From the NCBI GenBank assembly GCA_016712345.1, contig JADJRH010000002.1, forward strand, positions 136,466 through 200,465: a stretch of 64,000 bases of DNA. The letters run 5' to 3'. This stretch comes from Polyangiaceae bacterium. GTDB lineage: Bacteria; Myxococcota_A; Polyangia; Polyangiales; Polyangiaceae. Shown piece by piece: positions 14,826-64,000 of this stretch; the first letter of the stretch is position 1; every line of letters starts with the position of its first letter. Below the pieces are notes generated by a model. The model ran no database searches. It worked only from the letters and a program-made list of their open reading frames with translations, and was not told the origin of the DNA. The translations under genes and the position numbers were made by a program.

Positions 14826-14900
14826 GGCACGGAGATCACGGAGATCCACGGAGTTTTTTTGTATTTCAGGCTGAGCTGCAAAGCGTTTGCAGTTTTTGGG
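14826..14900 (+). mobile_element. Partial copy (A) of a MITE-like element: three tandem CACGGAG heptamers plus a T7 run, followed by a short hairpin
   Basis: The string cacggagatcacggagatccacggagttttttt is the reverse complement of the right end of the element at 22612-22784. No opposing terminal repeat is seen here. Confidence 0.55.
14874..14898 (+). terminator. Rho-independent terminator-like hairpin (CTGCAAA-gcg-TTTGCAG plus TTTTT) downstream of the FGE-domain gene
   Basis: Perfect 7-bp stem followed by a T5 run, read from the sequence. Confidence 0.55.
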
Positions 14901-14922
14901 CCGCGCACGGTACACTTCTCCC

Positions 14923-43494: not shown

Positions 43495-43555
43495 CCAAAA
43501 GCGTGCCGAGCTTGTAAAGGAAAATCGTCACAAGGCCTTTGACTTTCGGAACGCA

Positions 43556-43801
43556 ATGCTTCAAACACGACCCGTGATGCTTGCGGAAGAGCACCGCACG
43601 CGGCTTATTGGCGAAATTGCCAAAGTCCTTCAAGACGAGTGCATGCCTGACGACGCGCGCGCCGCGGGGCTCGTGCTCATCGGGTGGCTCGCGCGCCGCA
43701 TGCCCGGTGAAACGGCGCACGCCCTCGGCGTTGAAGAAATGCGCGCCGCCTGTGCCCACCGCCAAAACGGATCGCGCAGCGCCTCCAAAGCGTCTCGGTA
43801 A
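43556..43801 (+). CDS. Small hypothetical protein (81 aa), tentative
   Basis: An ATG-initiated ORF in the 500-bp gap before the Pro-rich protein gene. It looks protein-like, unlike the overlapping antisense ORFs. Confidence 0.3.
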   Translation: MLQTRPVMLAEEHRTRLIGEIAKVLQDECMPDDARAAGLVLIGWLARRMPGETAHALGVEEMRAACAHRQNGSRSASKASR

Positions 43802-47000: not shown

Positions 47001-47517
47001 CCTCTCCGAGGCCATCGCCGTGCGCGTTGTGGGCCTTTCCGACGGAACAACGGTGCTCACCTGGTCGGGCACCGTTGTAGAAGATATCCTCGGCGCCCAC
47101 GTCGGCGGGGATGCTCGTCGCCGCGCCCGGGGTGACCGCCTCCAGGCCGAGGTCGGCGCCACCATGGGCCCCATGGGTGAACTCCCCGACGAGGCCCGCA
47201 AAGCCCTCTTCGAAGAGTTGAACCTCAAAAAACTCTCCCCGGGAGAAATCTGGTTGGAAGACGGTGCCCCCGCCCCCGCGGTTTGCGTTGTCGGCGCCGG
47301 TGAAATTGAAACCTACGGCCCCATTTCTGAAGAAACCACCGAAGCGTTTGAACCCGGCGGCATTGTCTACCCTGACCTCCTCGTTGTGGGGGGTGAAGCC
47401 TCCAGCTCCGCACGAGCCGGAAGCGGCGGCGCGCTGGTGCTTTTTACAGATCGCAACGGCGCTGCCAAAATGTGTACACACGTGCCCGACTTGGCCGCTC
47501 GCCTCCGGGGCGAGTAG
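44005..47517 (+). CDS. Large Pro/Ala-rich protein (1170 aa) with internal tandem peptide repeats and a C-terminal region resembling two cNMP-binding-like domains
   Basis: N-terminal ~70-aa helical domain. Long PAPPAPP, VPPPK(T/G)xxxxKS and (D)TGKLTPD repeats. C-terminal DLFEGLPRPALETLASAARVEQLGLDEE and LFEELNLKKLSPGEIWLEDG segments look like degenerate Crp-type cNMP-binding folds. Confidence 0.65.
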   Translation: MAERAVDLPKPQPDDAEDVVDWLSTARALWARGERGDALVWLRRAAEAAAQAGQPFRASEIGMYVTAIEEMFAEPTPKPADTVRPAAADRPPHDTLVDPSEAFGALAGEVLRKQLNTIEVDLDDTLAEDSSPDLFQETAALGPAMVARVAPPSEAKGKPKAPPPAPRDVTSPLAAQAPAPREVQPPKVIVQVANTAAAPASSPPKKSASVRAPAAKPSSPPPGFLPELAPPRGEDGEETTLVTGTLRGALQKANAAPASVGTSPLASTPAPPQVRVSSSAMPPPPPSMGSPSLNVPRPPPTPREDTFSAMRSASTAPAVKPPKPSSAPPPPPSNTPPPARQPLPSWSGVGLTGNVRTPTRRPPKPPRTPILDPWAEEEIAAARPLPPIPPAPKTGTEEVVVVRARFPSIHEDDDVYTSAAPLPAALRRQAPAAPPAPPAAPPAPPAAAPSSPQAAVPPAPPAPPAPPAPPPPPSVATPQAAAPSQAVAPPPPAPFAPAPSAVPPAPTVYSSTPIPPAPPAPKPRTPVPGRLPNTADIVPKADIALADAAPASVPPPKTDVAPKSVPPPKGANRKSAPPSKSDVAPKSVPPPKEANRKSVPPPRPAAVVVSSETPVLAPGNVSKPESAGTEVKLPPDSPTLPTGKSFIEKLRPSSTGSIQRAPAAKPSAPASAPPSKASTAAAPAPAPPPPPSQAQPVSTPPAKASVPAAPGSSPPPKMPFAPAASPKSVAPASISAVPASKQAPTSAATPAKSAAPKPAPMSRPSPSASSVVAAGPPSPAAAPSAPKPDSTPTSVAAPTPAAPKVPRPLTVRPPPPAAPDTGKLTPDAGKLTPDTGKLTPDVTKSTPDIARSASDIAKSTPDIPKSGSDIPKFDPARATLPMMLEVEPMPVDVPSMRATLPMPLELPKQIEAYFEAQAQNPVLVEGVRLDQVDLFEGLPRPALETLASAARVEQLGLDEETRGFGAALLVSGSAALCATFVDVPAHWAKPAELLVARGSLSEAIAVRVVGLSDGTTVLTWSGTVVEDILGAHVGGDARRRARGDRLQAEVGATMGPMGELPDEARKALFEELNLKKLSPGEIWLEDGAPAPAVCVVGAGEIETYGPISEETTEAFEPGGIVYPDLLVVGGEASSSARAGSGGALVLFTDRNGAAKMCTHVPDLAARLRGE

Positions 47518-48201: not shown

Positions 48202-50319
48202 TCAAGCCTGGGGAGATTGCACCTCTGACTCCAGCGACGCGCGTGCCCCAGTCAGGTCAAACAGCCTTGATACCTGAAGCTCGTTCAACTGCTCCGCCGG
48301 TAGACATGGCTCGAACTTAGAAAGCGCCGTTTTGGCGGCAGCCTGCGCCGATTCGCGCAGGTCATTGCTGTTGGGTCTACCCTGCTCCTGAAAGCCCCGC
48401 AGCGTTTGCCTAACAGCCACAAGGCTCTTCCCCGCCTCGTCCACCAATGTCAGGTGCGTATTGCGAGCAATCGCGCGCCCACCCAATGCGCGCTCCAACA
48501 TACGCCCCAGAAGTGTGTTGGCCGCGCCCCCGGCAAACGTCCACCAAGTGATTGAGTCTTTGTCACTCAGCAAGGTTCGCCCTTCGCGCAAAAAACCATG
48601 TTCCGCGCGGCTTGTGGCAAGCACTTTGCGAGCGCGTTGTGAGCACCACGGCGCCGTCTCATCACTGAGCAGCACCCGTTTTATCGCTTGGCACAGCTCG
48701 TATCCAAGAAACCTCGGCCCGCCCGACCAACGCGGCGCCCGCCCGTCTTTGGTGGGGCGCACAATACAAATCCCCCTCTCCCACTCAATGTGCACCACCT
48801 CCCAAGCTTGCCCTGCCAAAACGAACGTGCTGTCTTTCCCGGTGGCAGTGATGGTACGCAAAAATGTTGCGTCCACCACACCAATTTCGCGCGCGTCGGC
48901 TTTGACGGTGATCATTCGCGGCGCGTCGAATACCGCATAAAGTGCCTCGAAGTTGGCTCGGCCATACCGCTTTTCGCCTTCGGTCCCGAGCCAAATCTTA
49001 CCATCTTGGTTCGCCAGGATCGTTCGGTCCAACATGGTGTCAATCAGAGCTTCGCGCTCCGTCGCCGCAATGTCAGAAAAGGCCGAACTGCCCTCAAACC
49101 AACCGGCAATATCCCCTCGAACTACGCCTCGACGCTCTACCGCCAACCCCAAAATCTGATGCGCCAGAATGTGATGCGCCCTCCGCCAAGGCTGAACCGG
49201 TTCTACCCATCCCTCCTTGAAGAGCTGCAACAGCGCCGCCGATTGAAGTAAGGTCGCATCGGTGGTCGCCAAAAACGTGCAGTTCGGGGTGGTGCCTTCC
49301 CGCCGACCTGTTCTACCCATCCGCTGCAAAAACGCGGCAACCGTGGGTGGACTGTCAACCTGAAGCACGTGGTCGAGGTCACCCACATCAATCCCCAGCT
49401 CCAGCGCGCTGGTAGCTACAATGACGCAGTCTTTCCCGTCTTGAAAGGCCCGCTCGGCGTCGCGCCGTTCAGTTGCGCCGAGCGAACCATGGGAGACAAA
49501 CGTGGTAACCCCACCTTGCCTCAAAAGGTTGCCCAATTCTTCAGCCTTGCGCCGCGAGTCAACAAACGCGAGCCGCTTTTTTCCAGGGTGAAGTGCCCGC
49601 ACCAACGTGGCGGCGTTTTCAAGCGAGCCCACGTAGTCCAATGTCAAGTCAGGTTTTTTTCGAGCGCCGCCCGGGTCTACCATTTCACCCGGCCGCGTGG
49701 AGCTGCCTCGCATCCATTGCAAGATCTCCTCTGGATTACCCACCGTGGCTGACAGACCAATTCGCTGCACATCGCGGCCACAAAACCGCGTAAAACGCTC
49801 CAACAATGCCGACAAATGAGCGCCTCGATCATCCCCTGCAAACGCGTGAATCTCGTCGATCACCACGGCGCGCAAACCTGAAAAGAGCGCGCGCGCCGGA
49901 ACGTTGGGGCTGATGAGCATTGCCTCCAACGATTCAGGTGTGGTGAGGAGAATATCAGCCGGGCTGGCCACAAACCGCTTTTTTGCGCTCGCCGTCACAT
50001 CTCCATGCCACTTAAAAACCCGCCGCCCCAACACCGATGCGTACCTTTCAAGCCGTTGTTCTTGGTTGTTGAGCAGCGCGCGAATAGGGCAAAGGTAGAT
50101 CACCGAAACCGGCCGCCAGTCGCCCTCGTCCATGGCTGACAGCAACGGAAAAAATGCCGCTTCGGTTTTTCCGCCCGCTGTGGGCGCCAACACAACACAG
50201 TTTTTCCCATCTAAAATGGTTTCAATCGCCCGCTCTTGAACCGGCCGCAGCGAGTTAAACCCAAGGGTGTGCACCACCTGATATTGAAACGCCGGGGTGA
50301 GCCGATCAAACGCGGTCAT
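48202..50319 (-). CDS. brxHI: BREX helicase BrxHI (Lhr-like DExH helicase)
   Basis: LAPTAGGKTEAAFFPLL (motif I), VIDEIHAF (DExH), TSALELGIDVGD and QRMGRTGRR (motif VI). ATGA overlap with brxD. Confidence 0.85.
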   Translation of the reverse strand: MTAFDRLTPAFQYQVVHTLGFNSLRPVQERAIETILDGKNCVVLAPTAGGKTEAAFFPLLSAMDEGDWRPVSVIYLCPIRALLNNQEQRLERYASVLGRRVFKWHGDVTASAKKRFVASPADILLTTPESLEAMLISPNVPARALFSGLRAVVIDEIHAFAGDDRGAHLSALLERFTRFCGRDVQRIGLSATVGNPEEILQWMRGSSTRPGEMVDPGGARKKPDLTLDYVGSLENAATLVRALHPGKKRLAFVDSRRKAEELGNLLRQGGVTTFVSHGSLGATERRDAERAFQDGKDCVIVATSALELGIDVGDLDHVLQVDSPPTVAAFLQRMGRTGRREGTTPNCTFLATTDATLLQSAALLQLFKEGWVEPVQPWRRAHHILAHQILGLAVERRGVVRGDIAGWFEGSSAFSDIAATEREALIDTMLDRTILANQDGKIWLGTEGEKRYGRANFEALYAVFDAPRMITVKADAREIGVVDATFLRTITATGKDSTFVLAGQAWEVVHIEWERGICIVRPTKDGRAPRWSGGPRFLGYELCQAIKRVLLSDETAPWCSQRARKVLATSRAEHGFLREGRTLLSDKDSITWWTFAGGAANTLLGRMLERALGGRAIARNTHLTLVDEAGKSLVAVRQTLRGFQEQGRPNSNDLRESAQAAAKTALSKFEPCLPAEQLNELQVSRLFDLTGARASLESEVQSPQA

Positions 50320-51659
50320 TCGGAGGTAGACTTGGTGTCTTGGCCAAGGTCGATCTGAATTTCATCGGCCGACCGAGCGATCCCGGCGGCGGCGCGTTCT
50401 TGGTCGTTCATTTCGCTGGGATCCACCCCCAGTGCCCCGTGCACCTCCGGCTCAAACTCAGGGTGCTCATCGACTTGGTCGAGCAGCGCCACAAGCCGCC
50501 GTAGGTAGATTCGCGGGGCTACCCCCACCTTACCACCCAAAACGCCCGCCACCTTGGTTGCAAGCGCGCGAAGCACCGGATCGCCCACTTTGGACAAAAT
50601 TCTGTCTTTGGCATCTGACGGGTAGATTTCGCGAACACGCGCTCCCACCGTGACGAGCTTTTCTAAGTCAAACGGCAGGAGTCGAATTTGTGGGGCACGC
50701 GCACTGTCGAACTTGGGGTCGGCGGCAAATGGAGTTTGCAACCGTTCTGCGAGCGCGGGTGCGCGCTTGATCCCCTGCGGTCCGTCAAAAAAAAGCGGCG
50801 TACCTGTGATGAGCACATAAAGCCCCGGGTAACGTTCAGCCGCGAGATCATCAATGAGTTGGCGGAGCGCATTCAGGCTTTTTTCTCGGTTGTCGGCCCG
50901 CACACGCTGAATGGTTTCCACTTCGTCGAGCACCAGTAAAAGCCCCTTGCGCCCTGTCTGTTTCAGCACTTCCAACTGGCCTCGAAAAAAGCCGGCGGCG
51001 CTGTCATTGTCAAGGTCGCCTTTCAGGTTGGCAACCCGCAGCACTCCCGCGCCCACGTTGGGTTGCCCCATGAGCCACGCAATCAACCCCTCGGCCACGG
51101 CATTGTCGCCGCGAACACGTGCCCCATGACAAGCGCGCAACGCCGCTGAAAATTGCGGTTGCGTGGCGCTCACATGCCGCAGCCGCTTTTCTAAAACATC
51201 CCCCACCTCTTTCTCAACGGCCTCCACGTTGTTCGGGTCGAGCTGACCCTGACCGAGCACTTCTTCTTCGAGTTGAAAAAACCACCGGTCTACCAGCGAC
51301 CGAAATGCACCGTCGGCCCACTCTTTGGTTTGGAGTGCCTCCATGGCCCGCCGGTAGACGGTTTCCATTCTGTAGAGGGGCGTGTCCAATTCAGAGATCT
51401 GAACCACAGCCGTGGCAAAACCTCTCTCCAACGCCCGGTGTTCAAGCCAACGAGCAAAAAAGGTCTTCCCTGTTCCGTATTCGCCTCGAACAGCTTTGAA
51501 TTTACCTTTACCGGTGGCCACCGTTTCAAGTTCTTCATCAACGGCTTTTTCAAACCGTTCAAGCCCCACGGCAAACAATTCAAGCCCGCGCCGCGGCACC
51601 GTACCAATGCGCAGGGCGTCGATAATTTCTCTTCGTTTAAGCAGGCTCGGCCCTGTCAT
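50316..51659 (-). CDS. brxD: BREX ATPase BrxD
   Basis: 447 aa with Walker A GEYGTGKTFFA and Walker B LLVLDEVE. Size and position after pglZ match BrxD of type 2/6 BREX. ATGA overlaps with both neighbours. Confidence 0.75.
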   Translation of the reverse strand: MTGPSLLKRREIIDALRIGTVPRRGLELFAVGLERFEKAVDEELETVATGKGKFKAVRGEYGTGKTFFARWLEHRALERGFATAVVQISELDTPLYRMETVYRRAMEALQTKEWADGAFRSLVDRWFFQLEEEVLGQGQLDPNNVEAVEKEVGDVLEKRLRHVSATQPQFSAALRACHGARVRGDNAVAEGLIAWLMGQPNVGAGVLRVANLKGDLDNDSAAGFFRGQLEVLKQTGRKGLLLVLDEVETIQRVRADNREKSLNALRQLIDDLAAERYPGLYVLITGTPLFFDGPQGIKRAPALAERLQTPFAADPKFDSARAPQIRLLPFDLEKLVTVGARVREIYPSDAKDRILSKVGDPVLRALATKVAGVLGGKVGVAPRIYLRRLVALLDQVDEHPEFEPEVHGALGVDPSEMNDQERAAAGIARSADEIQIDLGQDTKSTSE

Positions 51660-54455
51660 TCAGCCACCTCGAATAGCAGCTTCAACTTGGCGCTGTCCAA
51701 TGTGACCTGCTGGGATACACTGTCAAACCGCACCACTTCATATCCATCGACATTCAGGGTTTCTTGCAGTTTGGCCACAAAGCCCGGTACCCGACGCGGC
51801 AGCAACTCCATTCGCGCGCCAAACGCCGCGCCGCTCGCTGAGCCGGCTTTTTCAAGCAAAAAGTCCACAGCCGACACCACCTCTTTGCGCCGCGCCGCGT
51901 CCGGGGCCCGCGCTTCGAGCACTTTGGATTTGGAAAATGCGGTGGCCGCCGCCGACGGCACGGGAGCCTTGGGTGGGGGAAGGGTAGGTCGCTTGGACGG
52001 CGTTTTGGTAGGTTCGGCCAAAGGCAGCAGCGTCAGTTGATTGGGGTTGGTCTTGGGAGGTTTTTGCGGGGTCGCCGGCGGAGTGGCAACAGCCTCGGTG
52101 GACTTGACGGATAGGTGCCAAAACGTGGGCACATACAGCGGTCGAATGGCAAGTGCTTCGTCTCCGCCCGGACCCTGTAAATCCTCGGCCCCGGCGAGCA
52201 CGCAGGGGGCCACAATTTCAGCGAGCGACGCACCTCCGTGTTCCCCGGCGTGCCCTGAACCTCCCCATCGAACGGTGTCGTCTACCATCAGCGCCACACC
52301 CCATGCCCCTTTGGGAGCCCAGGCCCGCCCGGCCGGAAACTTTACCTCAAAGTCTTCGATCGCCGTCTTTTCAGATGGCAATGGTCGCCACCGCGCCCCA
52401 CCGGAGATGCCCCCTTTGGACTCCAACAAGTCGGCAGGTACGTGCCCATGGTCCGCAGCAAAAAGCACAGCTCGTCCGCAGGCGCGCGCTTTTTCAAGCA
52501 GATCTGCGAGCGAAGCAATGTTGTCTACTCCCCACGGGTGCCTTGTTGCCGGGTTGCCTTTTAGAGAGTCATCAATGGAGTTGAGTACCACCGCCACCAC
52601 CCGCTGATCGGTGTCTTCGACAAGTCGAAGAGCCTCTTCGGTGGCCGCGCCGCCTTTGGTTTGACTCTCCGCGCGGAGCAGCAACGTGGGTGCGCTCGTG
52701 CCGGGAAAAAACTTGTGCATGACCTTGTTGTCACGAAAGCGCTCGCGGTCTTTTTGTGTATCTTCCACCTTGCCCGGTGTCGCTTGTCGACTTGCAAAAA
52801 AGGCCGTTCGGCTCACCTCGGTGATCGATGGTACAGCCGCCAATACCACCGGCACCAGACCCGATCCAATTCTACCCTTTTTTGTACCATGCCACGCGAG
52901 TTGACCCCACCCGCGTTGCGACAGGGAGTCAAATAGCTCCACCGCCTGCGCCCACGCCATTCCATCGAGTAACAGGATCAATAACCGTCTGTCAGGCGCC
53001 TCTTCCAAAAACCTACCTGCCACTCGCTCAAGTGCGCGGTCAATGGGTAAAACCGCATGGGCAGGTTGGCCTGTCGCTACCCATTCTGTCAGGGCCCGCG
53101 CAAATGTCCGGTCCATTGAACGGCGCAGCTCGTCGGCCGCCCGCACCACCGCTTGCACTCCCTGTCCAAACACAGTGTCGGTTGTTCCGCGCGCCGCTCG
53201 CCGCGCCCAGTCCACATACCCACCCTCTTGGGTATACCAGGTGCCCAGGGTTTCAACCGCATCGTGGGGAGATGTTCCCATGGGAAGGTGGGTTGGATGG
53301 GTAGACAGCCATGCCAGCAGCCGCACCGCCATCCAAGCCCGTTCCAAGTGACGTTCACTCCCGGCTTCGGCAGCGAGCGAGTGCCCATCCACCGATTGAA
53401 GCCGCCGCTCCGCGAGGCGAACAGCTTCCACCGAAGGCTGTTTGGCGCCTTCCAAAAGAGCTTGTCCCAACGCGGTTAACCTTGCTGTGAGCGACGAAGG
53501 CAGCCGCGTGCTTGGCTCAAGTGCGGCTCGAATTTCACTGTCATCCACCAAGTCTTCGGCACCGCGCACCGCAGCCCGAACCTCGGCCGCGCCCGCCTTT
53601 CGTTCAATGTAGCGCAGCGCGGCGCCCGCAGCGGTTCCAAGTGCGTTGGGTACCGCCGCAAGGGCAACTTCGTCCTTTAGACCGAGGTCCATTTTGAGCC
53701 GCTGCTTGATCCACATGCGCACCGCATCGCTCGGTGACGTGGTGAGCGCCTCAAACAAGATCGCATATTGCAAAAGGCGCGCGCCTTTACCCTGTTCCCA
53801 TGCGAGCCATGCCAAAGGTCCTGCCGGCCCCAGCGACCGACCGAGCCATGTCAGACACTCTTCGCGAACACCGGGTAGAGCGCCTGCCCCATCAAGAAAT
53901 GCCTTGCTTCGAAGGTCGAGCGCGGCCCAGGCGAGCAACGCATCAAGAGCCATCCCCCCTTCGGTATCCAGACCCAACTCCGTGCGCAACCATACAGTCC
54001 ACAGAAGGTCATGGGTAAGTCGCCCCTCGCGCACAGAGAGCCGCTTGTTCGCTGAAGGACGCAAAAGCCACGGCGCAAGCGCGCTCTTTTTGGCTTCAAT
54101 ATCCACCTCACCTACCCCAAACAAAACTTTGAGCCGCGCTTCAGTATCCACACGAATCACGCGGCCACGTCGAGCAAACCGGCCCGCCAAGTCGAGCGGC
54201 AGAGGTTCTGTCCACGGGACAAGGTAAACTGCCCACGGATCTTCTTTTTTCTAAAGGGGGAAGAAGCGACCGAAGCTCCAACTCACTCCGAACTGGAATC
54301 ACCTCCAGATCGGGCGCCTGACTCACCTTCAGCATCTGACAGTCGCCCGTTCCAAACACCGCAAACAGGTGGTGGGCTCGGTCGACCTCCAGACAGCGTC
54401 GAACGATCTCTTCTAAATCCCGCGCTTCAAGCCGAGGGAGATCGCTTTCGGTCAT
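51656..54455 (-). pseudogene. pglZ: BREX alkaline-phosphatase-family protein PglZ, split by a +1 frameshift in an A6 tract (T6 on the + strand at 54245-54250). The two reading frames are 54141-54455 and 51656-54250.
   Basis: The 844-aa ORF has PglZ motifs (LLLDGMAWAQ, FAADHGHV) but begins at a TTG. The 104-aa upstream ORF starts with an ATGA overlap onto pglY. Deleting one A makes ...LLPPLEKEDPWAVYLVPWTEP... a continuous ~932-aa PglZ. Confidence 0.8.
54245..54250 (-). repeat. Poly(A)6 homopolymer (coding strand) at the pglZ frameshift site
   Basis: cttcttttttctaaaggggg on the + strand. The frames switch exactly here. Confidence 0.8.
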
Positions 54456-57400
54456 GATTTACGCCTCCAAACGAGCCGAACCGAACCTACCATTTCTACA
54501 TCGTCTCCGGCCGCGGTCAGGGCTGACTTTACTTGATCTACCCATTGGGCCAAAGCCTCCTGCGAAGCTGCTTTCCCCTTGGCCTGTATGGGAAGATTTT
54601 TTTCTTCTGCTCCGATGGGTAGAGGTGCCACCGCCACCGAAACGCCGAGGCCGGCGCCCTTTGTCAAGTCGGGTTTCGGCTTGAGCAAAAGCAGTGCTTC
54701 TTTGGCGAGTTCGCGCACGCGCGGGCCTATCTTTTGGTGCAATTCATCTTGCCGAAGGGCCTGACCCAACCCGTCAAGCAATTCTTCCCCGCCCGCACCA
54801 TCAGGGCGACAGCGCACCTGGTCCAACGTCCCCCACCCAAGGTCGTCTTTGACCTCGCGCACCGCGTCGTCCGCACCGGCAAACGAGTCTGCCAACGCTC
54901 GACCGCTTGTTTTCGGCTCAAATGCGGCCAGTGTTTCGACCAGCGCTTTGCCCTTTTTTCCGGCCAGTTGAGCCGACAGATCGTCGCCGCTCCGCGCGGT
55001 GACAAGGCGATCGGGTTCACCCGCAATGCCCAGTTGAGCGAGGCGCTGCGCCAAGAGCCCTGGCAATTGCATGGCGGCGGTTTGTTTTGGCTTAAAATAA
55101 CCGACCACCAGCGCTTCAAGCTTTTTCAGGTTGTCCCCGTGAAGCGCCCGACCCGAAAGGGTGATCCCAAAATCGCCGGCGCGGTTTAACGCCGCCATCC
55201 ACATGGCATGGGTAGGTAGGTCAGGTTGTTCTAGCACCACATGGTCGGGAATCTCCTGCCCCGGTTTCACCTCGTAGGGTAGGTCACCCGTGAGCAGTGT
55301 GCGCGCCGACCACCGCGCGTAACACCGCACCACCAAGTCCAATGCGTCGTCCTGCAAACCGCGAGCGCCTGTGTCATCAATCCAAGAACGCACTTCACCC
55401 ACTTCGGGCCTTGCCAGCGCCTTTTTTTGGCGCAGATTTTCTAACCGTTGCAGAGTGTCGTCTTCGCGCAAAAAGGCTTTGTCTTCGGTCACGCGCACAA
55501 GCCCCAGCTCGCCCAAAAAGCCGCGCATCAGGTCAGCCGTTTCGCGGTCCACCGCAATGCTCTTGTCTTCTGAATCTACAATTTCACCAAACCGGGCAAC
55601 TAGCAATTCAACAATTGTTTTGGTGAGTTTTCTGGGGAACTTGGGGTGTAGCCTATACCGCGATGCGAGCAGCTCATCGGCATACCTATACACCGCGTCG
55701 CCCAACGTGGCCGCGAGTTGAAATCGCACCTGAACACCGGGTTTGAGCACATGCACGTGCGTTTCAACCGCGTTGGACAGGTCTAAATCGCCTTCACGCG
55801 GTTTTACCAATCCGTACGCTTGTTCTAACACCTGACGAATGCGGTTTTGTTTTTGCGCCTGAAGGTTGATAAGATTTGTCACCGCGCCTTCTTGTTGTTT
55901 GGGCGCCAAATGCGAAACGTATTGTCGCGTGGTCGCGCGGTCGCTCAAAATGTGCTCGAGCACCACAAGATCGCCAAGTACCCGCACCATTTCTTTTGAG
56001 AAAAAAGTGGGTAGCCAAACAATTGTCCACGTGCCCGCCGCGTGCCCTTGCAAAAAGGTGTCGAGCGTTTTTTCGTCGTCCCCCGGACCATACCCATCGT
56101 CGTCAAATGGGTAGTCCACAATCAGTCGAAAGTCGTGACCGGGCGGACACAAGAGCAGATCTGCCGACATTTTGCGCACATTTCCAAACCGCAGGTGACC
56201 GCACCGCGTGGTTCCGCGAAAGTCGTCGTGTTTGAGATCTTTGCCCCAGTCGGGTACACCCTCAATGCCCAACGCCTTAAAAAGAAGGTCTTTGAGCACG
56301 CGTTGCCGAGCGCTTGGAGTATCAAACTGCCGCGCCTGTTCTAGAATCGGCCCGGTTTCTACCCCGTCAATGTCCACCCGCACCGTCGGATCGGTTTGGA
56401 CGCCCACGTGCAGTTGAGCGATGTTACCGGTGCTCGCCCAGTTGCGAAGTTTTTGAGCAACAAGCGTCACTTCCGTCCCAGGGATGGGGGCGCGCAGCGA
56501 CCCGTGGTTGAGTTGAACCAACTTGCTCGCTGTCAGTTCTTTCAGGGCCGGCCGCTCAGAAATAAGCGCCGCGACAAGTAAGGTTTTGGCCAGTCGATTG
56601 TCGGCTCGACAAGCCCTTTCTGGGCAATTGGAGCACCCAATCCGAGCGGGGTGGTCGGGCCGCAACCGCTGGCACCTGTCGGGGCTTGTGGTGCCGTTCG
56701 CGTGTTGAATCACGGGTAGAAATTGATATGTGTAGAGCTGTTTGGCGGCATCAAACCGGGCGCGCATAATGCCATCGGTTGAGTCGTCGCCCCCGGCGAT
56801 CACATCAAACAGATCGCCCACCCCCACCACATCTCCCATTTGGAGATCTTCCACATGCTCCACAAGCAGCTCGGTCAACAGTCGAATGGCCGTGCGTTCG
56901 CGTTGGAGCGAACTTGAAAGCGCCACCAGCGCATCCATCAGCACCGGGCTAAATGGGTAGAGTCGCCGAAACTCTTTTTCATCCAACTCGCCCAGGAGAA
57001 GCTGCCACGCGTTGTCACCCAACTTGGCGCGCATGGTTTTAAACGCGTCGTCGAGGGCTTTTTTGGCCGCGTCCCCCTTGGGTTTTAGAATGCGCTTTTC
57101 AGCAATCGCGGGTAGGTTGCGATCTTCCAGCAGCAACGTGTCAAACCGGCCTTCTGACCATTTGAGCGAGTCGCGAACAAGGGCGTTTTGCATCCCTTCA
57201 TGATCGCGGCCCACCAGTTCTGCCAAGTCACGCTGCCGCGCAATAAAGCTGATAAACGGCACCTGACGGTGCGAGTCCTGCGCTTCAACAAGTTTGACAA
57301 CCTTTTGCACTTCAGTATGAAAAAAGGTGAGGTTCCCCACGTGGGTGGCGAGCCACAAAATCAACTCGTCCAAAAACAAAACCACCCCTTCATACCCAAG

Positions 57401-58168
57401 TGACTTGGCATGCCTCGCCAGGGTAGAAAGCCCTTCATCCAAATCAACGAACTGCCGGCTTTCGTCGGCAAAAGCACCAAAACGCGTGCGCACAAGAGCA
57501 TTAAACAACGCCTCGCGCTCGCGCGGATCTGTAGAGGCCGCCACCGCGTCAAACCGCGCGCGCGACCACAGATCTCCCTCCGCAATATCACCCCACCCGG
57601 CCGACTCTTTGCCCGCGTTCATGGGTTGAAAAAACCGTTCATCCCCCAGTTCGCCAAGCATGCGGCGCGCATCGTCAAACAACTTTTCATCCGCAAACAC
57701 ACCGGGTAGAGGCGCGTTGGGATGAAGCCGCTTCACCGTGTCGATGTATCTACCAAAAATGGCACTTTCGAGATTGCCGCCGTGACCAATCAGGTGAAAC
57801 CGCAGTTGAAGGAGCTTTGTGGTGCCGCAAAAACCATGTTTTTCACGCAAGACATGCAATTCTGGAATGCGCCATGCGTGCTCGTCGCCTTCGAGGAGGA
57901 GAGAAAGCAGCGCCATAAAGTGCGACTTGCCGCTGCCAAAACTACCCTGTAAAAACCCGGCCCGGCTTCGCCCGTCGCGCAGCGCGCCGCCCACCAAATC
58001 GAGCGATTTATGAAAGGCGCCCAGCAATGCGGGCGTGACAACGTACGTTTCAGCCGTGACCTTGGGTTGAGTGACAGCGCGTGACAACTCTTCCACAAAG
58101 CCGATTTTGTGAACCGACTGGGGAAGGTCAAACAGGTCTTTCACTCGGTTTTTAACGGGGGTAGCCAT
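54452..58168 (-). CDS. pglY: BREX P-loop ATPase PglY/BrxC (1238 aa)
   Basis: N-terminal GSFGSGKSHFMALL Walker A, as in BrxC/PglY. Size is typical at ~1200 aa. It sits 22 nt downstream of pglX with a GGAG Shine-Dalgarno. Confidence 0.85.
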   Translation of the reverse strand: MATPVKNRVKDLFDLPQSVHKIGFVEELSRAVTQPKVTAETYVVTPALLGAFHKSLDLVGGALRDGRSRAGFLQGSFGSGKSHFMALLSLLLEGDEHAWRIPELHVLREKHGFCGTTKLLQLRFHLIGHGGNLESAIFGRYIDTVKRLHPNAPLPGVFADEKLFDDARRMLGELGDERFFQPMNAGKESAGWGDIAEGDLWSRARFDAVAASTDPREREALFNALVRTRFGAFADESRQFVDLDEGLSTLARHAKSLGYEGVVLFLDELILWLATHVGNLTFFHTEVQKVVKLVEAQDSHRQVPFISFIARQRDLAELVGRDHEGMQNALVRDSLKWSEGRFDTLLLEDRNLPAIAEKRILKPKGDAAKKALDDAFKTMRAKLGDNAWQLLLGELDEKEFRRLYPFSPVLMDALVALSSSLQRERTAIRLLTELLVEHVEDLQMGDVVGVGDLFDVIAGGDDSTDGIMRARFDAAKQLYTYQFLPVIQHANGTTSPDRCQRLRPDHPARIGCSNCPERACRADNRLAKTLLVAALISERPALKELTASKLVQLNHGSLRAPIPGTEVTLVAQKLRNWASTGNIAQLHVGVQTDPTVRVDIDGVETGPILEQARQFDTPSARQRVLKDLLFKALGIEGVPDWGKDLKHDDFRGTTRCGHLRFGNVRKMSADLLLCPPGHDFRLIVDYPFDDDGYGPGDDEKTLDTFLQGHAAGTWTIVWLPTFFSKEMVRVLGDLVVLEHILSDRATTRQYVSHLAPKQQEGAVTNLINLQAQKQNRIRQVLEQAYGLVKPREGDLDLSNAVETHVHVLKPGVQVRFQLAATLGDAVYRYADELLASRYRLHPKFPRKLTKTIVELLVARFGEIVDSEDKSIAVDRETADLMRGFLGELGLVRVTEDKAFLREDDTLQRLENLRQKKALARPEVGEVRSWIDDTGARGLQDDALDLVVRCYARWSARTLLTGDLPYEVKPGQEIPDHVVLEQPDLPTHAMWMAALNRAGDFGITLSGRALHGDNLKKLEALVVGYFKPKQTAAMQLPGLLAQRLAQLGIAGEPDRLVTARSGDDLSAQLAGKKGKALVETLAAFEPKTSGRALADSFAGADDAVREVKDDLGWGTLDQVRCRPDGAGGEELLDGLGQALRQDELHQKIGPRVRELAKEALLLLKPKPDLTKGAGLGVSVAVAPLPIGAEEKNLPIQAKGKAASQEALAQWVDQVKSALTAAGDDVEMVGSVRLVWRRKS

Positions 58169-58189
58169 GGTACACTTGCTCCAACAACC

Positions 58190-61100
58190 TCAGGGGCTTT
58201 GTTCACCCTCAGGTTTGGTTTTTTTCTTGGCGGTTGGGCGCTTGGCTTTGCTTTTTTCAGCCGGTCGAAACGCTCGCAAGTCGTCGCGTGAAAGGCCGAG
58301 CGCGTGGCATTCACCGTCGAGAAACGTTTCGTAATAGTCGCCAAGGCGCAGCCCGCCAAACTCGGGGTTGGGGTCATTGTGCCATTGTTTTACCCACGGA
58401 ATCAGTTCAAGAAGGCCGGCAAGCATGGGTAGAAGCCGCTCTTTGGACCAGGCTTCACCGGTGCGGCGGTGTTGGTAGAGGGTGGCAAGGGCTTGCGCTT
58501 GTTGTTGGTGATTCCACCCCGCCCAGCCAAACACAGGTTCGCGGTCTTCGTCTGATTCGCAACCGGGGTAGCTGATAAAGCGCTCTTTTGGAACATCCAG
58601 TTTGCCTCGCAGGCGCCAAGTAGACGCGTCGCGATAATCGCCCTGGTCATATTTGGGCGGCGGGTCAAACGGGTTGACTTTTTCGCCGCGATCTTCGGCC
58701 CGCTGGAGATCCCATACCTTTTCCCAAACGGCGCGTTTTTCAAGGCCAGAAAGGGTGTGGCGGTAGGCGGCCAAAAAGGGCACCGATTCTCTTTCGATCA
58801 GACCGAACGCAAGTTCGCGGCCTTCAACATTGAGGTACTCGGAAACTGTATTCAGCGTTTGAGACTCTTCCCGAATGGCTTGGAGGATCTCCCTAAAAGG
58901 GACAGGTTCTGCGCGCTTTTGAGTTACCCTTTCGAGGTCGCTTGCGAGGTATTCCTCGCACCAATGTCGCACAACCTCACCACGAAACTCTGCCTGATCC
59001 ACGTTCTGCTCAGTGTCTCGCCATGCACGCTTATTGGTTCGCGATTCAAGCAATGCCAGTGAGGAGTGTAATGCAAGAGCGTCACGACCTTTCCACCAAT
59101 CGGGCACGCGTCCGACGACCGAACGCGTTTGTTCTGAACTTGTTCGCACTCGTTCAGACACCCCGCTCGCGTAGCCTGTACTCGCCTCGAAGGGCCGATC
59201 ACCCAGCGGGCATACCCAATTCCCGTCCGCCACGCTCGCGGAAACCGGCGCGTCAGTCAGTCCATACGCAACATAGATCATCCAGTCGATTTCTTCTTGG
59301 ATGCATGCACAACGCGCCGTCAACTCATCGAACCTGCGCCATTCGCGATTAACCGTCTCACGCAGTGTGTCGGCAGACTTCCAAGCGTCAGGTGCGTCAA
59401 TCAAAACACCTCCTGAAAGCCATTTGGAACGGGCAGTCGCTGCTTCCGTGAGCGACCTTGCAAGCATTGCCATTGCGCTGGCATTCTGGGGCGGTATTGG
59501 CATTGATTCCAACGCGGTGCCCGCAAACTCATACGCCGCCCGAGCGGGATCTGTGGTGTGCTTTTGCGAGGCGTTGGTCTTGTTGTGGCAGACTTGTTTC
59601 ATCCAGAAACAAGCGGTGGAGCTGTTGAGGTAGGCGAGCAATGCCAGGTGATCGTCTTCGGTGGCGTCTTCTTTGAGCTTGATAATCGGCGCCGAACGGT
59701 TGAACACCTTCCCACCCCGATCGAGCACAAAATGATTGTGTGTGGCGACAAACGCGAACGTGATCGTGAGCGGCGTCCGCAGCTTGGCAGCTGTCAATCG
59801 ACCAAATTCATACCACGCCAAACCGCCTTCAACCTTGGTTTTGCCGCCAAAAAGCTTGTTATTTGATAGGTTCGTGCGGTGCGGCCACAGTACCTTGAGA
59901 GCGTCGTCCTTGGGGCTAATGAGCCGAAAATCTGGAAAATAAGGGAACAAAGCCGTTTCCACCTCGCCAACAGTCCAATCCCGAATGGCTTCACCGATCA
60001 CCATCGGCCGCGTGAATGGTCGCGAGGCCCCGGTACGGTCCCAAACCTGACGGGGTCGGATATAGACATCGTCCTCCAAGGTGAAGGATGCGATTCCGAT
60101 GCTGTCCACGAGGTCACCCAATCTGCATTGGGCCCGCTCTTCCAACAACTCTTTCAACTCCGCCGCCCCTCCTCCACCCAAACTCCACGGATGTTTTGAC
60201 AACGTGGTTTTGGGCACCCGCGCCACGCTGATGAAGTCGTTTTCAAACTCAACTTCCTCCCCGTGGTCCGCTATACTCCTCCACACCAAACCCTGTTCAG
60301 GATCCTGCGGGGTTGATGGTTCACCGCGTTTGGCCAACACCGCAAGCACATCGCTCGCCTGCTGCGGCTCGTGGGTTCCCAACAAAATGACGGTGGGTGT
60401 ACCATGCCCTGGAATGTACGCGCCCGATGTATTGACAACCCCATCTAAGTTGACAGTGGGGAGAAACTGTTCAATCAGCTTTTTACCAAACTCTCGCTTC
60501 ATAAAGGAGTTCGCCGTGATCATCCCCACAAACCCACCCTGTTTGGCGAGTTGAAAAAAGCGCTCGGTAAACGGCGCCCCAAGCGAATATTTCCCAGCGG
60601 CGGAGCGAGGGTACATCTCTCTGTACCGCTCCCGCAAATAGGCATCTTTCACCGTGATATACGGTGGGTTGCCCACCACCACCGTGAACTTCCTGTGCAG
60701 CACATCGCGGGCCGCCTGCTCATCTTCCAGGGCAAATGCCTCACCTTCCCACGTGGCAAGTTGTTGACCTGACAACTCACCCAGTTTGATTTGGGAGTGT
60801 TGCGGGTTGTGGAGGAGTGAATCGGCAACCACCAGGTGTAAGGGGAGAGCGGGAGCCAGCGAAAGCCTTGTGTACCCCCCTTTTTCGAGAAATGCGAGTG
60901 TCAGACGAAAACGCGCAATCGCCACCGCGTACGGGTTAATGTCACACCCAAACACCGCATCGAGCGCTTTCTGCGCGGCATGGCGAACGTCCAACCCCGG
61001 CTCGGTGCGCTGGCGATGGTCGAGCAGGCGCTCAAACGCGCCGAGCAAAAAGTGGCCGCTGCCGCAGGTAGGGTCAATCAAAGTGGTTTGGTCCAACCCA

Positions 61101-61810
61101 AACCGCCGGATGGAAGGCTCCAACGTGCGGTCGAGAATGTACCGTTCCACAAACGAAGGGGTTTGGAGCAGCGCAAACCGCTCGCGCACATCGGAAGAAA
61201 GGTCTTGGTAGAGGTCGCCCAAAAACCGGGTGTCGGCCTGACCAAACCTGAATGCCGGTGTTTCAGCATGCGGCGAGCGAAACAGGGCCACGAGCTTTTT
61301 GGCCATTGCGGCAGAAGGGCCGAGCATCCACACCGGGTTGTGGCGCGCATCAAACAAGTCTTCAGCGGCGGGTAGGCGCGACAATTCTCGAAACACGGTG
61401 AGCAGGTATTCACGCTCGGTGAGGGAGGGCGCGATCTGAAAAAAGAGGCGCTGGCTGTCTTCTGCCCCCGGTCCCGCAATGCGGTTGTGTCCGAGTAGAC
61501 CCCGATCTTCCAACGTGCGAACAAACACACACGACAAGAGCCAGCTCGCAGCCACTTGGGTCACAAAGTGGCGCTCCCACACTTCAAGCGGGTCGGCGGT
61601 GCGGCGCGCCGCACGTTCGGTCTCGTGCCGTTCACGCAGAGAGGTGCGTACACCGGCGGAAGATCGGGCGCGCGAAAGAAGGTCGGCCTCCAATTCAGTG
61701 AGCACGGCCTGCGCTTTGGTAAGAAACAAGGCCGAGTCGAGCGCCGCAGTGGGGTTGGACTGGGGGGCCAGGTCTACCGTGGAAGGTTTTTTTCTAGGGG
61801 CCATGGTCAA
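58190..61810 (-). CDS. pglX: BREX N6-adenine DNA methyltransferase PglX (1206 aa)
   Basis: VVGNPPYITVKDAY (NPPY motif IV) and GSGHFLLGAFERL (SAM motif I). Size is typical at ~1200 aa. Start is TTG at 61810 or ATG at 61804, directly after the pglW stop. An A7 tract occupies codons 4-6. Confidence 0.9.
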   Translation of the reverse strand: MTMAPRKKPSTVDLAPQSNPTAALDSALFLTKAQAVLTELEADLLSRARSSAGVRTSLRERHETERAARRTADPLEVWERHFVTQVAASWLLSCVFVRTLEDRGLLGHNRIAGPGAEDSQRLFFQIAPSLTEREYLLTVFRELSRLPAAEDLFDARHNPVWMLGPSAAMAKKLVALFRSPHAETPAFRFGQADTRFLGDLYQDLSSDVRERFALLQTPSFVERYILDRTLEPSIRRFGLDQTTLIDPTCGSGHFLLGAFERLLDHRQRTEPGLDVRHAAQKALDAVFGCDINPYAVAIARFRLTLAFLEKGGYTRLSLAPALPLHLVVADSLLHNPQHSQIKLGELSGQQLATWEGEAFALEDEQAARDVLHRKFTVVVGNPPYITVKDAYLRERYREMYPRSAAGKYSLGAPFTERFFQLAKQGGFVGMITANSFMKREFGKKLIEQFLPTVNLDGVVNTSGAYIPGHGTPTVILLGTHEPQQASDVLAVLAKRGEPSTPQDPEQGLVWRSIADHGEEVEFENDFISVARVPKTTLSKHPWSLGGGGAAELKELLEERAQCRLGDLVDSIGIASFTLEDDVYIRPRQVWDRTGASRPFTRPMVIGEAIRDWTVGEVETALFPYFPDFRLISPKDDALKVLWPHRTNLSNNKLFGGKTKVEGGLAWYEFGRLTAAKLRTPLTITFAFVATHNHFVLDRGGKVFNRSAPIIKLKEDATEDDHLALLAYLNSSTACFWMKQVCHNKTNASQKHTTDPARAAYEFAGTALESMPIPPQNASAMAMLARSLTEAATARSKWLSGGVLIDAPDAWKSADTLRETVNREWRRFDELTARCACIQEEIDWMIYVAYGLTDAPVSASVADGNWVCPLGDRPFEASTGYASGVSERVRTSSEQTRSVVGRVPDWWKGRDALALHSSLALLESRTNKRAWRDTEQNVDQAEFRGEVVRHWCEEYLASDLERVTQKRAEPVPFREILQAIREESQTLNTVSEYLNVEGRELAFGLIERESVPFLAAYRHTLSGLEKRAVWEKVWDLQRAEDRGEKVNPFDPPPKYDQGDYRDASTWRLRGKLDVPKERFISYPGCESDEDREPVFGWAGWNHQQQAQALATLYQHRRTGEAWSKERLLPMLAGLLELIPWVKQWHNDPNPEFGGLRLGDYYETFLDGECHALGLSRDDLRAFRPAEKSKAKRPTAKKKTKPEGEQSP
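61787..61793 (-). repeat. Poly(A)7 tract (coding strand) 10 nt into pglX (MAPRKKPS)
   Basis: ggaaggtttttttctagggg on the + strand. Confidence 0.8.
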
Positions 61811-64000
61811 GCGGCTGCGTTGTGGCGGTTACTCATCCACGCGGCCGAGACCCAAAGAGTCTGACCGGGTAAGATGCCGGGTATAGTAAAGGTGCCTTCA
61901 ATGCGAGGCACGGCCAAGGTGTCGTGCACAGGCACAAGCAAAAACAGGGGCTGCGTTTCACGTTTGGAAGCGGTGGAGACGAGTCGAGTGACAAAATCCA
62001 CCAGATTGTACCGCGCAATGGGGCCGGGCTGTACCAATAAGAGCGGGCGCGGATGTGTACACAATCGAGGGAGCAGCGCGTCGGCGGCGAGCGACACCAA
62101 CTTTTTCAACTTGCTCCAGTGAGGGCCTGTTGGGCCTTCACGGTCGGCAGAAAACACCACATCGTCGGAGGGGATGTTGGCTTTTTTGCGCTGGGTTTCT
62201 ACTTCACGCGCCAATTCTAAATCAAGGGCCAAAAGGTCGGCCCCAAGGCGTTCTTGCAAGTCTAACGCGGCTTGACGCGCGCGATCGGCCCGAACACCCA
62301 ACACTCGAAACGCGTTCATCTCCAGGGCGTGTTTCAGGCGTTCGTCAAACTGGCGAGCGTCAATAGCATCGGCATCCATGGCGCGCGGTTGGGTAGGAAG
62401 GGCGGTGCGCGCTCGAATCAGCGAAGAGATGGTGGAGGTCTGAAGGGAGGTGGCGTTTTGTTCTTCAGGCCGTTCAAACTGGTTTGTTGAAGCCACCCAC
62501 GTAAACCCAATGGGCGCAAGCAGCGCGTCTAAGTCTGGTCGGGTAGGCAGGGGCGCGGCGTGGGGATAACGCAGCGCCACGCGGCTTTTCACGTCAACTT
62601 CGGTAACGCCGCCTTTGAACGTGGCGGCACACAACTCAACTGCGCGGCGAGCTTCCAACCCGCGTGGGTAGATCTCCATACGGGCCGAACATGCGGCGTT
62701 TGCACTCGCAGCGGTGGCCAAAGCAAAAAGGCGCTCGTCTTTGGCCGTTGCAAGCGGAGTATTCGCCACTATTTCGTCAAACACCCGGCGGGCTTCGCCC
62801 GGCGACGCCAGGGTAGGTCGCTTTGCGAGCGCATCGGCCGCGGCGCCGAGCGCGCGCACCCAACGTGCGTACTCTTCCGAAAGAAACATCCACGGGTCGC
62901 GGTCATTCAACCTCAGCCATCGCAGCCCTGTGGGCGTGTCTTTGTCGGTTTCAGCAACAATGCGAAATAGGGCCGCTGCTTTGGCCAACACCAGGGCAGG
63001 GGAAACGTCGGTTCCATGGGGAAGAGTGCGGGCCAACTCTTCAGAAAGCGTCACGAGATGGGCGGCTCCACCCGCCGATTCTACAAGAGTGGTAAGGCGC
63101 TCGCGTAGCTCACTCAGGGCTTTGTGAGAGGCCCAATCTTCCCTCGCTTTGCTCTGCGCGATGTACACAGCCGGAAGGGTTTTGTTTTCTGCCGTGGCCA
63201 CTTCACGCACGGTCACATCAAGCCGGCCCTGAAACGGCGCGTCGAGCCCCAAAAGCGCGCGAACAAGGTGGCGATCTTTTTTCCCCTTTTTTTGAGGCAA
63301 AAGCGCTTCTACCCATCCTTCAAGTGTGGTGGGGTGAGCGCGTTGATTGGCTCGCTCGTTTTCATCGGCAAGTGCGGTGCGCAGCTGCAATGGGTCAAAC
63401 CGGTGGCGCTCCGCCAGGTTTTTTACCTGCGTTTCGGGGGTGAAAGCGAGAGCGCGCAGAGTGGGTAGACCGCTGTCAACAAGGGCATCAGACAAAGCGG
63501 GGTTGAGTCCCAACGTCCCAACAGGCCGATCTTCACCTCCATAGCCGGGGAAAAACGGCGCGAGAGGCGTCTCGGTCAGAGTTCGAACGTGCATCCACGT
63601 GTCGCGCAGGTGAAAGATCTCCTTGGCAACATGCCTTCCAACCCCGCGGATGGCGCTCAAACGGTTGGGGCTCAGGCCGGGGAGATCGCGCATGCGCGTG
63701 AGGCCGGCTCGGTCGAGCGCATTGCGCGCGCGGTTGGAAAGTGGAAGGGTGGCAACGGGCGTATCCGGGTCGATCTGAGCGATCTGTTCTTCAGTAAGAA
63801 CCGATTCACCCGGTGAATCATCGGCCTGGACAATGGGTAGATCGGCCGCAGGGGCGGGTAGAACGGGGGGTGAAACCTCGGCAGGGGTTTGTAACGGCGG
63901 TGGAGGGGTTGCCGCGATTTTGGGGCGCAACGAGCGCGCGGGGGCACCCACAACCGACAGCCAGGCGAGGCGCATGTCGTGGGCAGAGGCAAAGCGGTCC
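61807..64000 (-). CDS. pglW: 5'-partial gene at the window edge, best explained as the C-terminal ~730 aa of the BREX type 2 kinase PglW (Pro-rich linker, RpoA-CTD-like helix-hairpin-helix, C-terminal domain). No kinase domain lies within the window.
   Basis: The frame is open to position 64000. PPPPLQTPAEVSPPVLPAPA linker, then LPLSNRARNALDRAGLTRMRDLPGLSPNRLSAIRGVGRHVAKEI (HhH). Position is immediately upstream of pglX with a 4-nt overlap. The PglW identity is inferred from gene order alone. Confidence 0.5.
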   Translation of the reverse strand, partial: DRFASAHDMRLAWLSVVGAPARSLRPKIAATPPPPLQTPAEVSPPVLPAPAADLPIVQADDSPGESVLTEEQIAQIDPDTPVATLPLSNRARNALDRAGLTRMRDLPGLSPNRLSAIRGVGRHVAKEIFHLRDTWMHVRTLTETPLAPFFPGYGGEDRPVGTLGLNPALSDALVDSGLPTLRALAFTPETQVKNLAERHRFDPLQLRTALADENERANQRAHPTTLEGWVEALLPQKKGKKDRHLVRALLGLDAPFQGRLDVTVREVATAENKTLPAVYIAQSKAREDWASHKALSELRERLTTLVESAGGAAHLVTLSEELARTLPHGTDVSPALVLAKAAALFRIVAETDKDTPTGLRWLRLNDRDPWMFLSEEYARWVRALGAAADALAKRPTLASPGEARRVFDEIVANTPLATAKDERLFALATAASANAACSARMEIYPRGLEARRAVELCAATFKGGVTEVDVKSRVALRYPHAAPLPTRPDLDALLAPIGFTWVASTNQFERPEEQNATSLQTSTISSLIRARTALPTQPRAMDADAIDARQFDERLKHALEMNAFRVLGVRADRARQAALDLQERLGADLLALDLELAREVETQRKKANIPSDDVVFSADREGPTGPHWSKLKKLVSLAADALLPRLCTHPRPLLLVQPGPIARYNLVDFVTRLVSTASKRETQPLFLLVPVHDTLAVPRIEGTFTIPGILPGQTLWVSAAWMSNRHNAAA

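Follow-up and report, generated by a model that had tools for sequence, protein, structure and literature searches.

A single extra A interrupts pglZ in the type 2 BREX operon of a Polyangiaceae metagenome-assembled genome

We analyzed a 64,000-nucleotide stretch (hereafter, the window) of a metagenome-assembled genome (MAG) from a Polyangiaceae bacterium (contig JADJRH010000002.1), the minus strand of which carries a complete type 2 bacteriophage exclusion (BREX) operon, also called a phage growth limitation (Pgl) operon. Its phosphatase gene, pglZ, is interrupted by a one-base insertion in a run of six A residues. We lean, somewhat past an even chance, toward the extra A being a homopolymer miscall that survived in the consensus of a probably Nanopore-derived MAG. 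An earlier note on this DNA had described the split gene and proposed that the A6 run, together with an A7 run at the start of the methyltransferase gene pglX, constitutes a pair of candidate phase-variable switches. Its coordinates and sequence statements are all correct, with the genes lying on the minus strand, and its reading of pglZ as sequenced, namely that the gene is either OFF or the site of a homopolymer sequencing error, agrees with what we found. The proposal that the runs are switches is not supported by comparison with the genomic background and with related loci.

The stop codon of the upstream gene pglY (TGA, 54454-54452) overlaps the ATG (54455-54453) of a 104-residue open reading frame (ORF) on the minus strand. 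The long PglZ frame is open only downstream of a TAG at 54253-54251, and its first ATG, GTG or TTG is the TTG at 54190, the sole start that the earlier note had given for the 844-residue ORF. The features of the break are as follows.

51656..54455, minus strand: pglZ (BREX-2 phosphatase), full gene as reconstructed, 932 residues after removal of one A from the A6 run
54141..54455, minus strand: 5' fragment ORF of pglZ, 104 residues, in which codons 1-70 encode the authentic start of PglZ and the remaining 34 are frameshifted
51656..54190, minus strand: 3' ORF of pglZ, 844 residues from TTG 54190, from ORF reading and PADLOC
54245..54250, minus strand: A6 run with the one-base insertion; coding strand TTAGAAAAAAGAAGAT
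54464..54468, minus strand: Shine-Dalgarno sequence GGAGG, which precedes the pglZ ATG 54455 by 8 nt and lies within the 3' end of pglY

Deleting one A at 54245-54250 yields an uninterrupted 932-residue protein, as expected from the earlier claim that the 104-residue ORF runs into PglZ once an A is removed, and the in-frame state of the run is A5 (GAA AAA GAA GAT, encoding E K E D). The repaired protein matches the PADLOC PglZ profiles over positions 4-940 of 943 (E = 1e-116 to 1e-123), whereas the 844-residue ORF matches them only from position 89-98. The indel is confined to approximately 54241-54250, because the downstream frame is closed by the TAG at 54253-54251 and the upstream frame ceases to be homologous after LEK. 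Neither half of pglZ contains a further stop or shift, and the other BREX genes are without lesions. Shine-Dalgarno-like sequence is absent before TTG 54190 and before CTG 54202, the two positions from which the 3' portion might be read.

Orthologous proteins show what the intact gene looks like. A search of 5.8 billion proteins with the repaired 932-residue PglZ as query returned about 120 homologs with 35-68% identity, nearly all of them 915-960 residues long and covering 99-100% of the query. A fused PglZ of roughly 930 residues is the norm, and the 104-residue ORF is the true 5' end of the gene; this comparison was among the checks that the earlier note had suggested. When 114 of the homologs were aligned, the junction was gap-free in the closest ones and was flanked by conserved motifs, VRSELELR on the side of the 5' fragment and FLVPW on the side of the 3' ORF. 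Residues 1-70 share a mean identity of 42.6% with the 114 homologs, vs 48.7% for the remainder, and are by this measure about as conserved as the rest of the protein. In the two nearest relatives (loci L054 and L055, 66-68% amino-acid identity), the start of pglZ likewise overlaps the stop of pglY by 4 nt. When the DNA of these loci is aligned with the window, the window has exactly one additional base, which falls at the A run: it reads TTAGAAAAAAGAAGAT, compared with CC-AGGAGGAAGAC and CG-AAGAGGACGAT in the two relatives, with a single gap at the run. Neither relative has a homopolymer at the orthologous site. One apparent second instance of an N-terminally short PglZ, P0018 (828 residues), was discarded because it is truncated by the end of its contig.

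The public record does not reveal this break. NCBI protein MBK8255144.1 (P0001; 'MAG: BREX-2 system phosphatase PglZ [Polyangiaceae bacterium]'; 848 residues, on a contig of 738,087 bp) is a 100% identical match that begins at a CTG (54200-54202, minus strand) translated as Met, leaving the annotation 84 residues short (848 vs 932). It is entered as a normal coding sequence and not as a frameshifted pseudogene, and the record thereby conceals the disruption of pglZ. Taken literally, the sequence encodes a predicted pglZ null.

Structural modeling indicates what such a product would lack. The AlphaFold model of ortholog P0002 (predicted local distance difference test score, 89.4) has an N-terminal alpha/beta subdomain composed of helix 11-23, strands 30-34, 40-44 and 47-54, helix 58-64 and strand 75-79, and the frameshift position falls in the loop that connects helix 58-64 to strand 75-79. 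According to this model, truncation of the ORF would cost the subdomain four strands and two helices, and a product beginning at residue 85-89 would thus be missing a conserved folded piece. The predicted fold of P0002 matches the Acinetobacter type 1 BREX PglZ (PDB 9zn5_B) along its whole length (E = 2e-13) and superposes on PorX as well, showing that the N-terminal alpha/beta part is integral to PglZ proteins. Sequence identity of type 2 PglZ to 9zn5_B and PorX is only 11-13%, and no solved structure is detectable by sequence as a relative of type 2 PglZ.

If the extra A is a consensus error, an A5 would have been read as A6 in the long-read consensus, breaking the pglZ frame in the record; the real organism probably carries an intact 932-residue PglZ and a working system. 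The run in pglZ is on this account not a dedicated switch and arises from the preference of this genome for AAA, GAA and TTT codons. Several observations point in this direction. The change is by a single base, is confined to a homopolymer and lies in an otherwise intact gene, the pattern such an artifact leaves. Both halves of pglZ are pristine and the GGAGG and the ATGA coupling to pglY are kept, implying that the change, if real, is very recent. The record is a MAG, and the accession MBK8255144 belongs to the same MBK8 block as MBK8541194 and MBK8541199 of JADJUE010000009.1 (isolate Hirt_BATAC.427), a name that fits the style of the MAG file names in Singleton et al. 2021 (PMC8012365), a Nanopore-plus-Illumina project on activated sludge. 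The MAG table of that paper includes Polyangiaceae MAGs, and in its pipeline CANU assemblies of Nanopore reads were polished with Racon, then twice with medaka and finally once with Racon on Illumina reads. Homopolymer indels that fragment gene calls are a documented residual error in metagenome assemblies based on Nanopore R9.4.1 (PMC9262707). The case described here resembles those errors in that a single-base homopolymer change splits one gene call, and the accession block and contig size fit as well; it differs in that there is one event in 64 kb and in that the call of an error rests on the assembled consensus. The 252 A/T runs of at least five in the 64 kb represent many chances for a miscall. 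All other BREX genes are intact, pglX with its catalytic motifs included, and S. coelicolor with a functional pglX does not tolerate a pglZ null (PMC4365076).

The collections we searched hold no independent copy of this population. No Illumina-based assembly of it (Logan/ENA/JGI) was found in the contig and protein collections, which fits a low-abundance, poorly polished population, and exact look-ups of PglW-C, PglZ (P0001) and PglX found no sister assembly. The genome contig collection contains only relatives of at most 67% identity, and the metagenome contig collection a single relative at 34%.

Other considerations weigh against a consensus error. All but one of the 75 coding A/T runs of at least six (74/75) keep frame, and a census that combined a gene map drawn from codon scores with simulated +/-1 edits of each run of at least five uncovered no other convincing split gene among the approximately 38 genes of the window. 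The lack of a second split gene despite 252 A/T runs of at least five suggests that polishing was largely effective and that the per-site error rate is low. Defense genes are often truly inactivated. The connection to the Nanopore project, moreover, is drawn from accession proximity and naming style and not from the record itself, and since the error is called from assembled sequence and not from reads, the A6 allele may be real. Finally, the toxicity of pglZ loss in Streptomyces coelicolor, discussed below, may depend on methyl-specific endonucleases of the host, as its authors themselves suggest (PMC4365076). A practical caution follows for similar findings: where a long-read MAG has a short homopolymer beside a split gene, a consensus error is the first possibility to consider.

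Split BREX-2 genes were encountered elsewhere in the course of this analysis. In the PglW cluster of L038:5680-9834 (JADJUE010000009.1), a sister MAG (contig of 713,797 bp) has PglW in pieces of 374 and 1010 residues, and five other assemblies have an intact protein of 1384 residues; the split PglW of this sister long-read MAG is another split BREX-2 gene and adds to the circumstantial case for a consensus error in pglZ. At L046 (2466-6175 and 10162-12619), L051 (10001-13733) and L026 (4450-7987 and 13707-16416), all of them MAG loci, alignments of pglX and/or pglZ with the proteins of the window are divided over two to six segments that differ in frame, indicating that multiply frameshifted BREX-2 genes occur in other metagenome assemblies. 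The isolates of L046 and L051 carry names of the form MFD*.

A genuine, recent loss-of-function allele is possible but clearly the less probable account. Here the A5 of the dominant population would have gained an A through spontaneous +1 slippage, by ordinary decay or as a loss driven by cost. Translation from ATG 54455 would end at 54141, the 844-residue remainder would be without a ribosome-binding site, BREX would be OFF, and reversion would be no more frequent than the low rate usual for a 6-nt run. Spontaneous frameshifts arise most commonly as homopolymer indels, for which this genome, with its unusual wealth of A/T runs, offers many sites; outside pglZ the window is free of frameshifts, as in an otherwise accurate assembly. 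The placement of GGAGG before ATG 54455, with none before TTG 54190 or CTG 54202, and the position of the break in the loop between 58-64 and 75-79 of the P0002 model, with its cost of four strands and two helices, likewise accord with a genuine null. However, there are no secondary lesions in pglZ or in the other five genes, and the source is probably a long-read MAG, in which exactly this class of error is expected. The genetics of the system also argue against such an allele: the one type 2 system that has been dissected genetically does not survive loss of pglZ unless pglX is inactivated too (PMC4365076), and pglX looks intact here.

The phase-variation proposal holds that the pglZ run, and possibly the A7 run of pglX, slips often and generates a mixture of BREX-ON (A5) and BREX-OFF (A6) cells. 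We regard it as improbable. It has a precedent in the same type of system, for the pglX gene of S. coelicolor contains a G8 tract that phase-varies at 1e-2 to 1e-4 (PMC4365076; Sumby and Smith 2003, cited there), just as the earlier note had stated. In addition, both runs lie in the 5' part of their ORFs, where a change in length would toggle the whole protein, a property that holds for any coding homopolymer. Their lengths speak against the proposal. The working cut-offs of PhasomeIt are at least 7 for poly-G/C and at least 10 for poly-A/T (PMC6321876), leaving A6 and A7 well below the threshold, and its authors state that even these cut-offs include tracts with mutability below 1e-5 (PMC6321876). 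Like the G8 tract of S. coelicolor pglX, the runs considered here are homopolymers that set the frame within a BREX-2 ORF; unlike it, they are A6 and A7, the disruption is in pglZ, the runs do not exceed the background and no variation in length was observed. No such G tract exists in the window, where the longest G/C run is 7 and only two runs reach that length.

The background was surveyed across the window (59.5% GC), which contains 84 A/T runs of at least six (66 A6/T6, 16 A7/T7 and 2 A8). Coding DNA accounts for 75 of these, and the BREX operon for 31 of the coding runs, with 4-8 per BREX gene. The earlier note had considered two such tracts in two BREX genes of one operon unusual, which these counts contradict. 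Per kilobase, pglZ has 1.43 and pglX 1.38 runs of at least six, close to the coding average of 1.33. The operon as a whole is mildly enriched, with 1.97 such runs per kb compared with 1.09 per kb in coding DNA elsewhere in the window (binomial p = 0.014), a point in favor of switching. Further A7 runs lie in pglY, which has two, and in brxHI, pglW and the 3' end of pglX; brxD contains the longest homopolymer of the operon:

50787-50794, minus strand: T8 on the coding strand of brxD, in frame, from the run census

Were any tract of the operon prone to slippage, this T8 would be the first candidate, ahead of the A6 or A7. The abundance of A/T runs is a genome-wide trait. Runs of at least six occur at 1.31 per kb here, vs 0.04-0.30 in other BREX-2 loci of 57-62% GC, and codon usage per 1000 favors AAA over AAG (27.6 vs 16.0), GAA over GAG (41.0 vs 21.2) and TTT over TTC (24.9 vs 8.2). 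This preference for AAA, GAA and TTT is odd for a GC-rich genome, and accompanies the excess of A/T runs.

Neither run is maintained in relatives as a switch might be. Among 28 other BREX-2 loci, no pglZ has an A/T run of at least six except that of L034, from a genome of 46% GC, and the orthologous pglZ site of the nearest relatives is, as described above, free of a homopolymer. The run in pglX, which the earlier note had placed correctly, is the following:

61787..61793, minus strand: A7 run in pglX codons 4-6, in frame, AGA AAA AAA encoding R K K

The gene starts ATG GCC CCT AGA AAA AAA from ATG 61804. In L054, the N-terminus of PglX is M A A R K K K N, with RKK spelled AGGAAAAAGAAAAAC, such that the A run is interrupted by a G. 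The A7 is thus no more than the coding sequence of a conserved Arg-Lys-Lys. Both runs, in sum, are short and common, and the proposal that they are candidate switches is not borne out.

The supposed benefit of switching also fails for pglZ. The earlier note had argued that BREX toxicity makes such switches adaptive. Yet S. coelicolor does not tolerate the loss of pglZ as long as its pglX is functional (PMC4365076). The combination of pglZ OFF with pglX ON would accordingly be toxic and not an adaptive resting state, the opposite of what had been argued, and with pglX intact here the switch logic of S. coelicolor does not transfer. No second assembly of this population, in which a different run length might be seen, was present in the contig or protein collections searched. 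There is only a slim chance that the A6 is real and coexists with A5, that the many short runs act as low-rate reversible switches of BREX-2, and that a pglZ null is tolerated with intact pglX. If so, homopolymer phase variation of BREX-2 would extend from Streptomyces pglX to Myxococcota pglZ, and the need for PglZ to restrain PglX would be challenged, contrary to the toxin/antitoxin genetics of S. coelicolor.

Least likely is recoding, in which the A6 template would still give rise to full-length PglZ. Either the ribosome would slip by +1, its peptidyl-tRNA-Lys moving from one AAA to the overlapping AAA during the wait for the rare codons AGA AGA to be decoded in the A site, or the RNA polymerase would slip and omit one A. 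A +1 shift that passes over the single A between GAA AAA and GAA GAT does yield the conserved L-E-K-E-D-P-W, and the zero frame continues after AAA with two AGA codons, the least used of the Arg codons here (3.4 per 1000). However, the split is not conserved, as each of the approximately 114 full-length homologs is encoded by one continuous ORF and the nearest relatives do not have the motif; no Shine-Dalgarno-like stimulator lies upstream (CTTCTTCCCCCTTTAG); and the 105 nt that follow show no stronger folding than shuffled sequences (z = -0.40). Efficient transcriptional slippage needs runs of about nine or more. Both routes were set aside for want of conservation and of a stimulatory element; recoding could contribute at most a trace of read-through.

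The census for other split genes brought up several neighbors of interest. An EamA gene and a sigma-54 activator gene, considered as a single split gene, were ruled out as unrelated genes. The following pair was also examined:

14887-16242 and 16239-18518, plus strand: AAA/STAND-like NTPase (451 residues) and TPR protein (about 760 residues), with an ATGA overlap, from the ORF map

These two genes are ATGA-coupled, with a natural-looking C-terminus and N-terminus at the boundary, and are not convincing as a split gene; they may form a two-gene signaling or defense pair. ORFs 41980-43494 (504 residues) and 43433-43801 (122 residues), both on the plus strand, overlap by 62 nt in different frames and had no family match; they may be a second split gene, though not a convincing one. 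Beside the BREX operon, a 1170-residue ORF (44005-47517, plus strand) has a codon score of 0.10 per codon, vs approximately 0.3 for its neighbors, and no Pfam or PADLOC match. Frame analysis by third-codon-position GC (GC3) was uninformative in this genome.

PADLOC and Pfam profiles bear out the earlier identification of the genes as a BREX-2/Pgl operon and assign the minus-strand genes to PglW, PglX, PglY/BrxC, PglZ, BrxD and BrxHI. Judged by these matches, 48202-64000 on the minus strand is an ordinary type 2 BREX (Pgl) operon of a known kind, for which the name BREX-2 PglZ is already in use at NCBI. Together with pglZ, it comprises the following genes.

61807..64000, minus strand: pglW, C-terminal ~730 codons; PADLOC PglW E = 2e-99, profile 783-1398 of 1403
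58190..61804, minus strand: pglX methyltransferase, intact; PADLOC PglX E = 0, profile 4-1187 of 1189; Pfam Eco57I and DUF7008
54452..58168, minus strand: pglY/brxC ATPase, intact; PADLOC BrxC-PglY profile 5-1226 of 1240, E = 0
50316..51659, minus strand: brxD, intact; PADLOC BrxD 1-439 of 440, E = 2e-178
48202..50319, minus strand: brxHI helicase, intact; PADLOC BrxHI 2-693 of 698, E = 8e-280

The profile matches supply PglY/BrxC and PglW as well as BrxD and BrxHI, the components expected of type 2 BREX, and PglZ belongs to the alkaline phosphatase family after repair, its frame being interrupted as sequenced. The full-length PglX carries NPPY at residue 379 together with the S-adenosylmethionine motif DPTCGSG, consistent with the N6-adenine methyltransferase of these systems. 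For PglW, only positions 783-1398 of the profile are matched as the gene leaves the window, a part in which the kinase domain itself is not seen. A second frameshift, in pglW, where a 722-residue ORF matches only the C-terminal half of the profile, was considered and ruled out because the frame is open to base 63999; this open frame aligns with the PglW proteins of loci L001, L024 and L031.

The closest characterized counterpart is pglWXYZ of S. coelicolor A3(2), with which the present operon is comparable in uniting the same six families; type 2 BREX reportedly includes brxD and brxHI in the classification of Goldfarb et al. 2015. It differs in belonging to an uncultured member of the Polyangiaceae (Myxococcota) and in carrying a one-base frameshift in pglZ. 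In a related BREX-2 operon, L055 1498-6324 and L056 1498-6324, whose PglZ is 66% identical, have five extra genes between pglX and pglY, encoding proteins of 142 residues, 426 residues (ParA-like), 478 residues, 394 residues (AAA_15/AAA_21 ATPase) and 166 residues, an insert that from its gene content looks like an embedded accessory or defense module.

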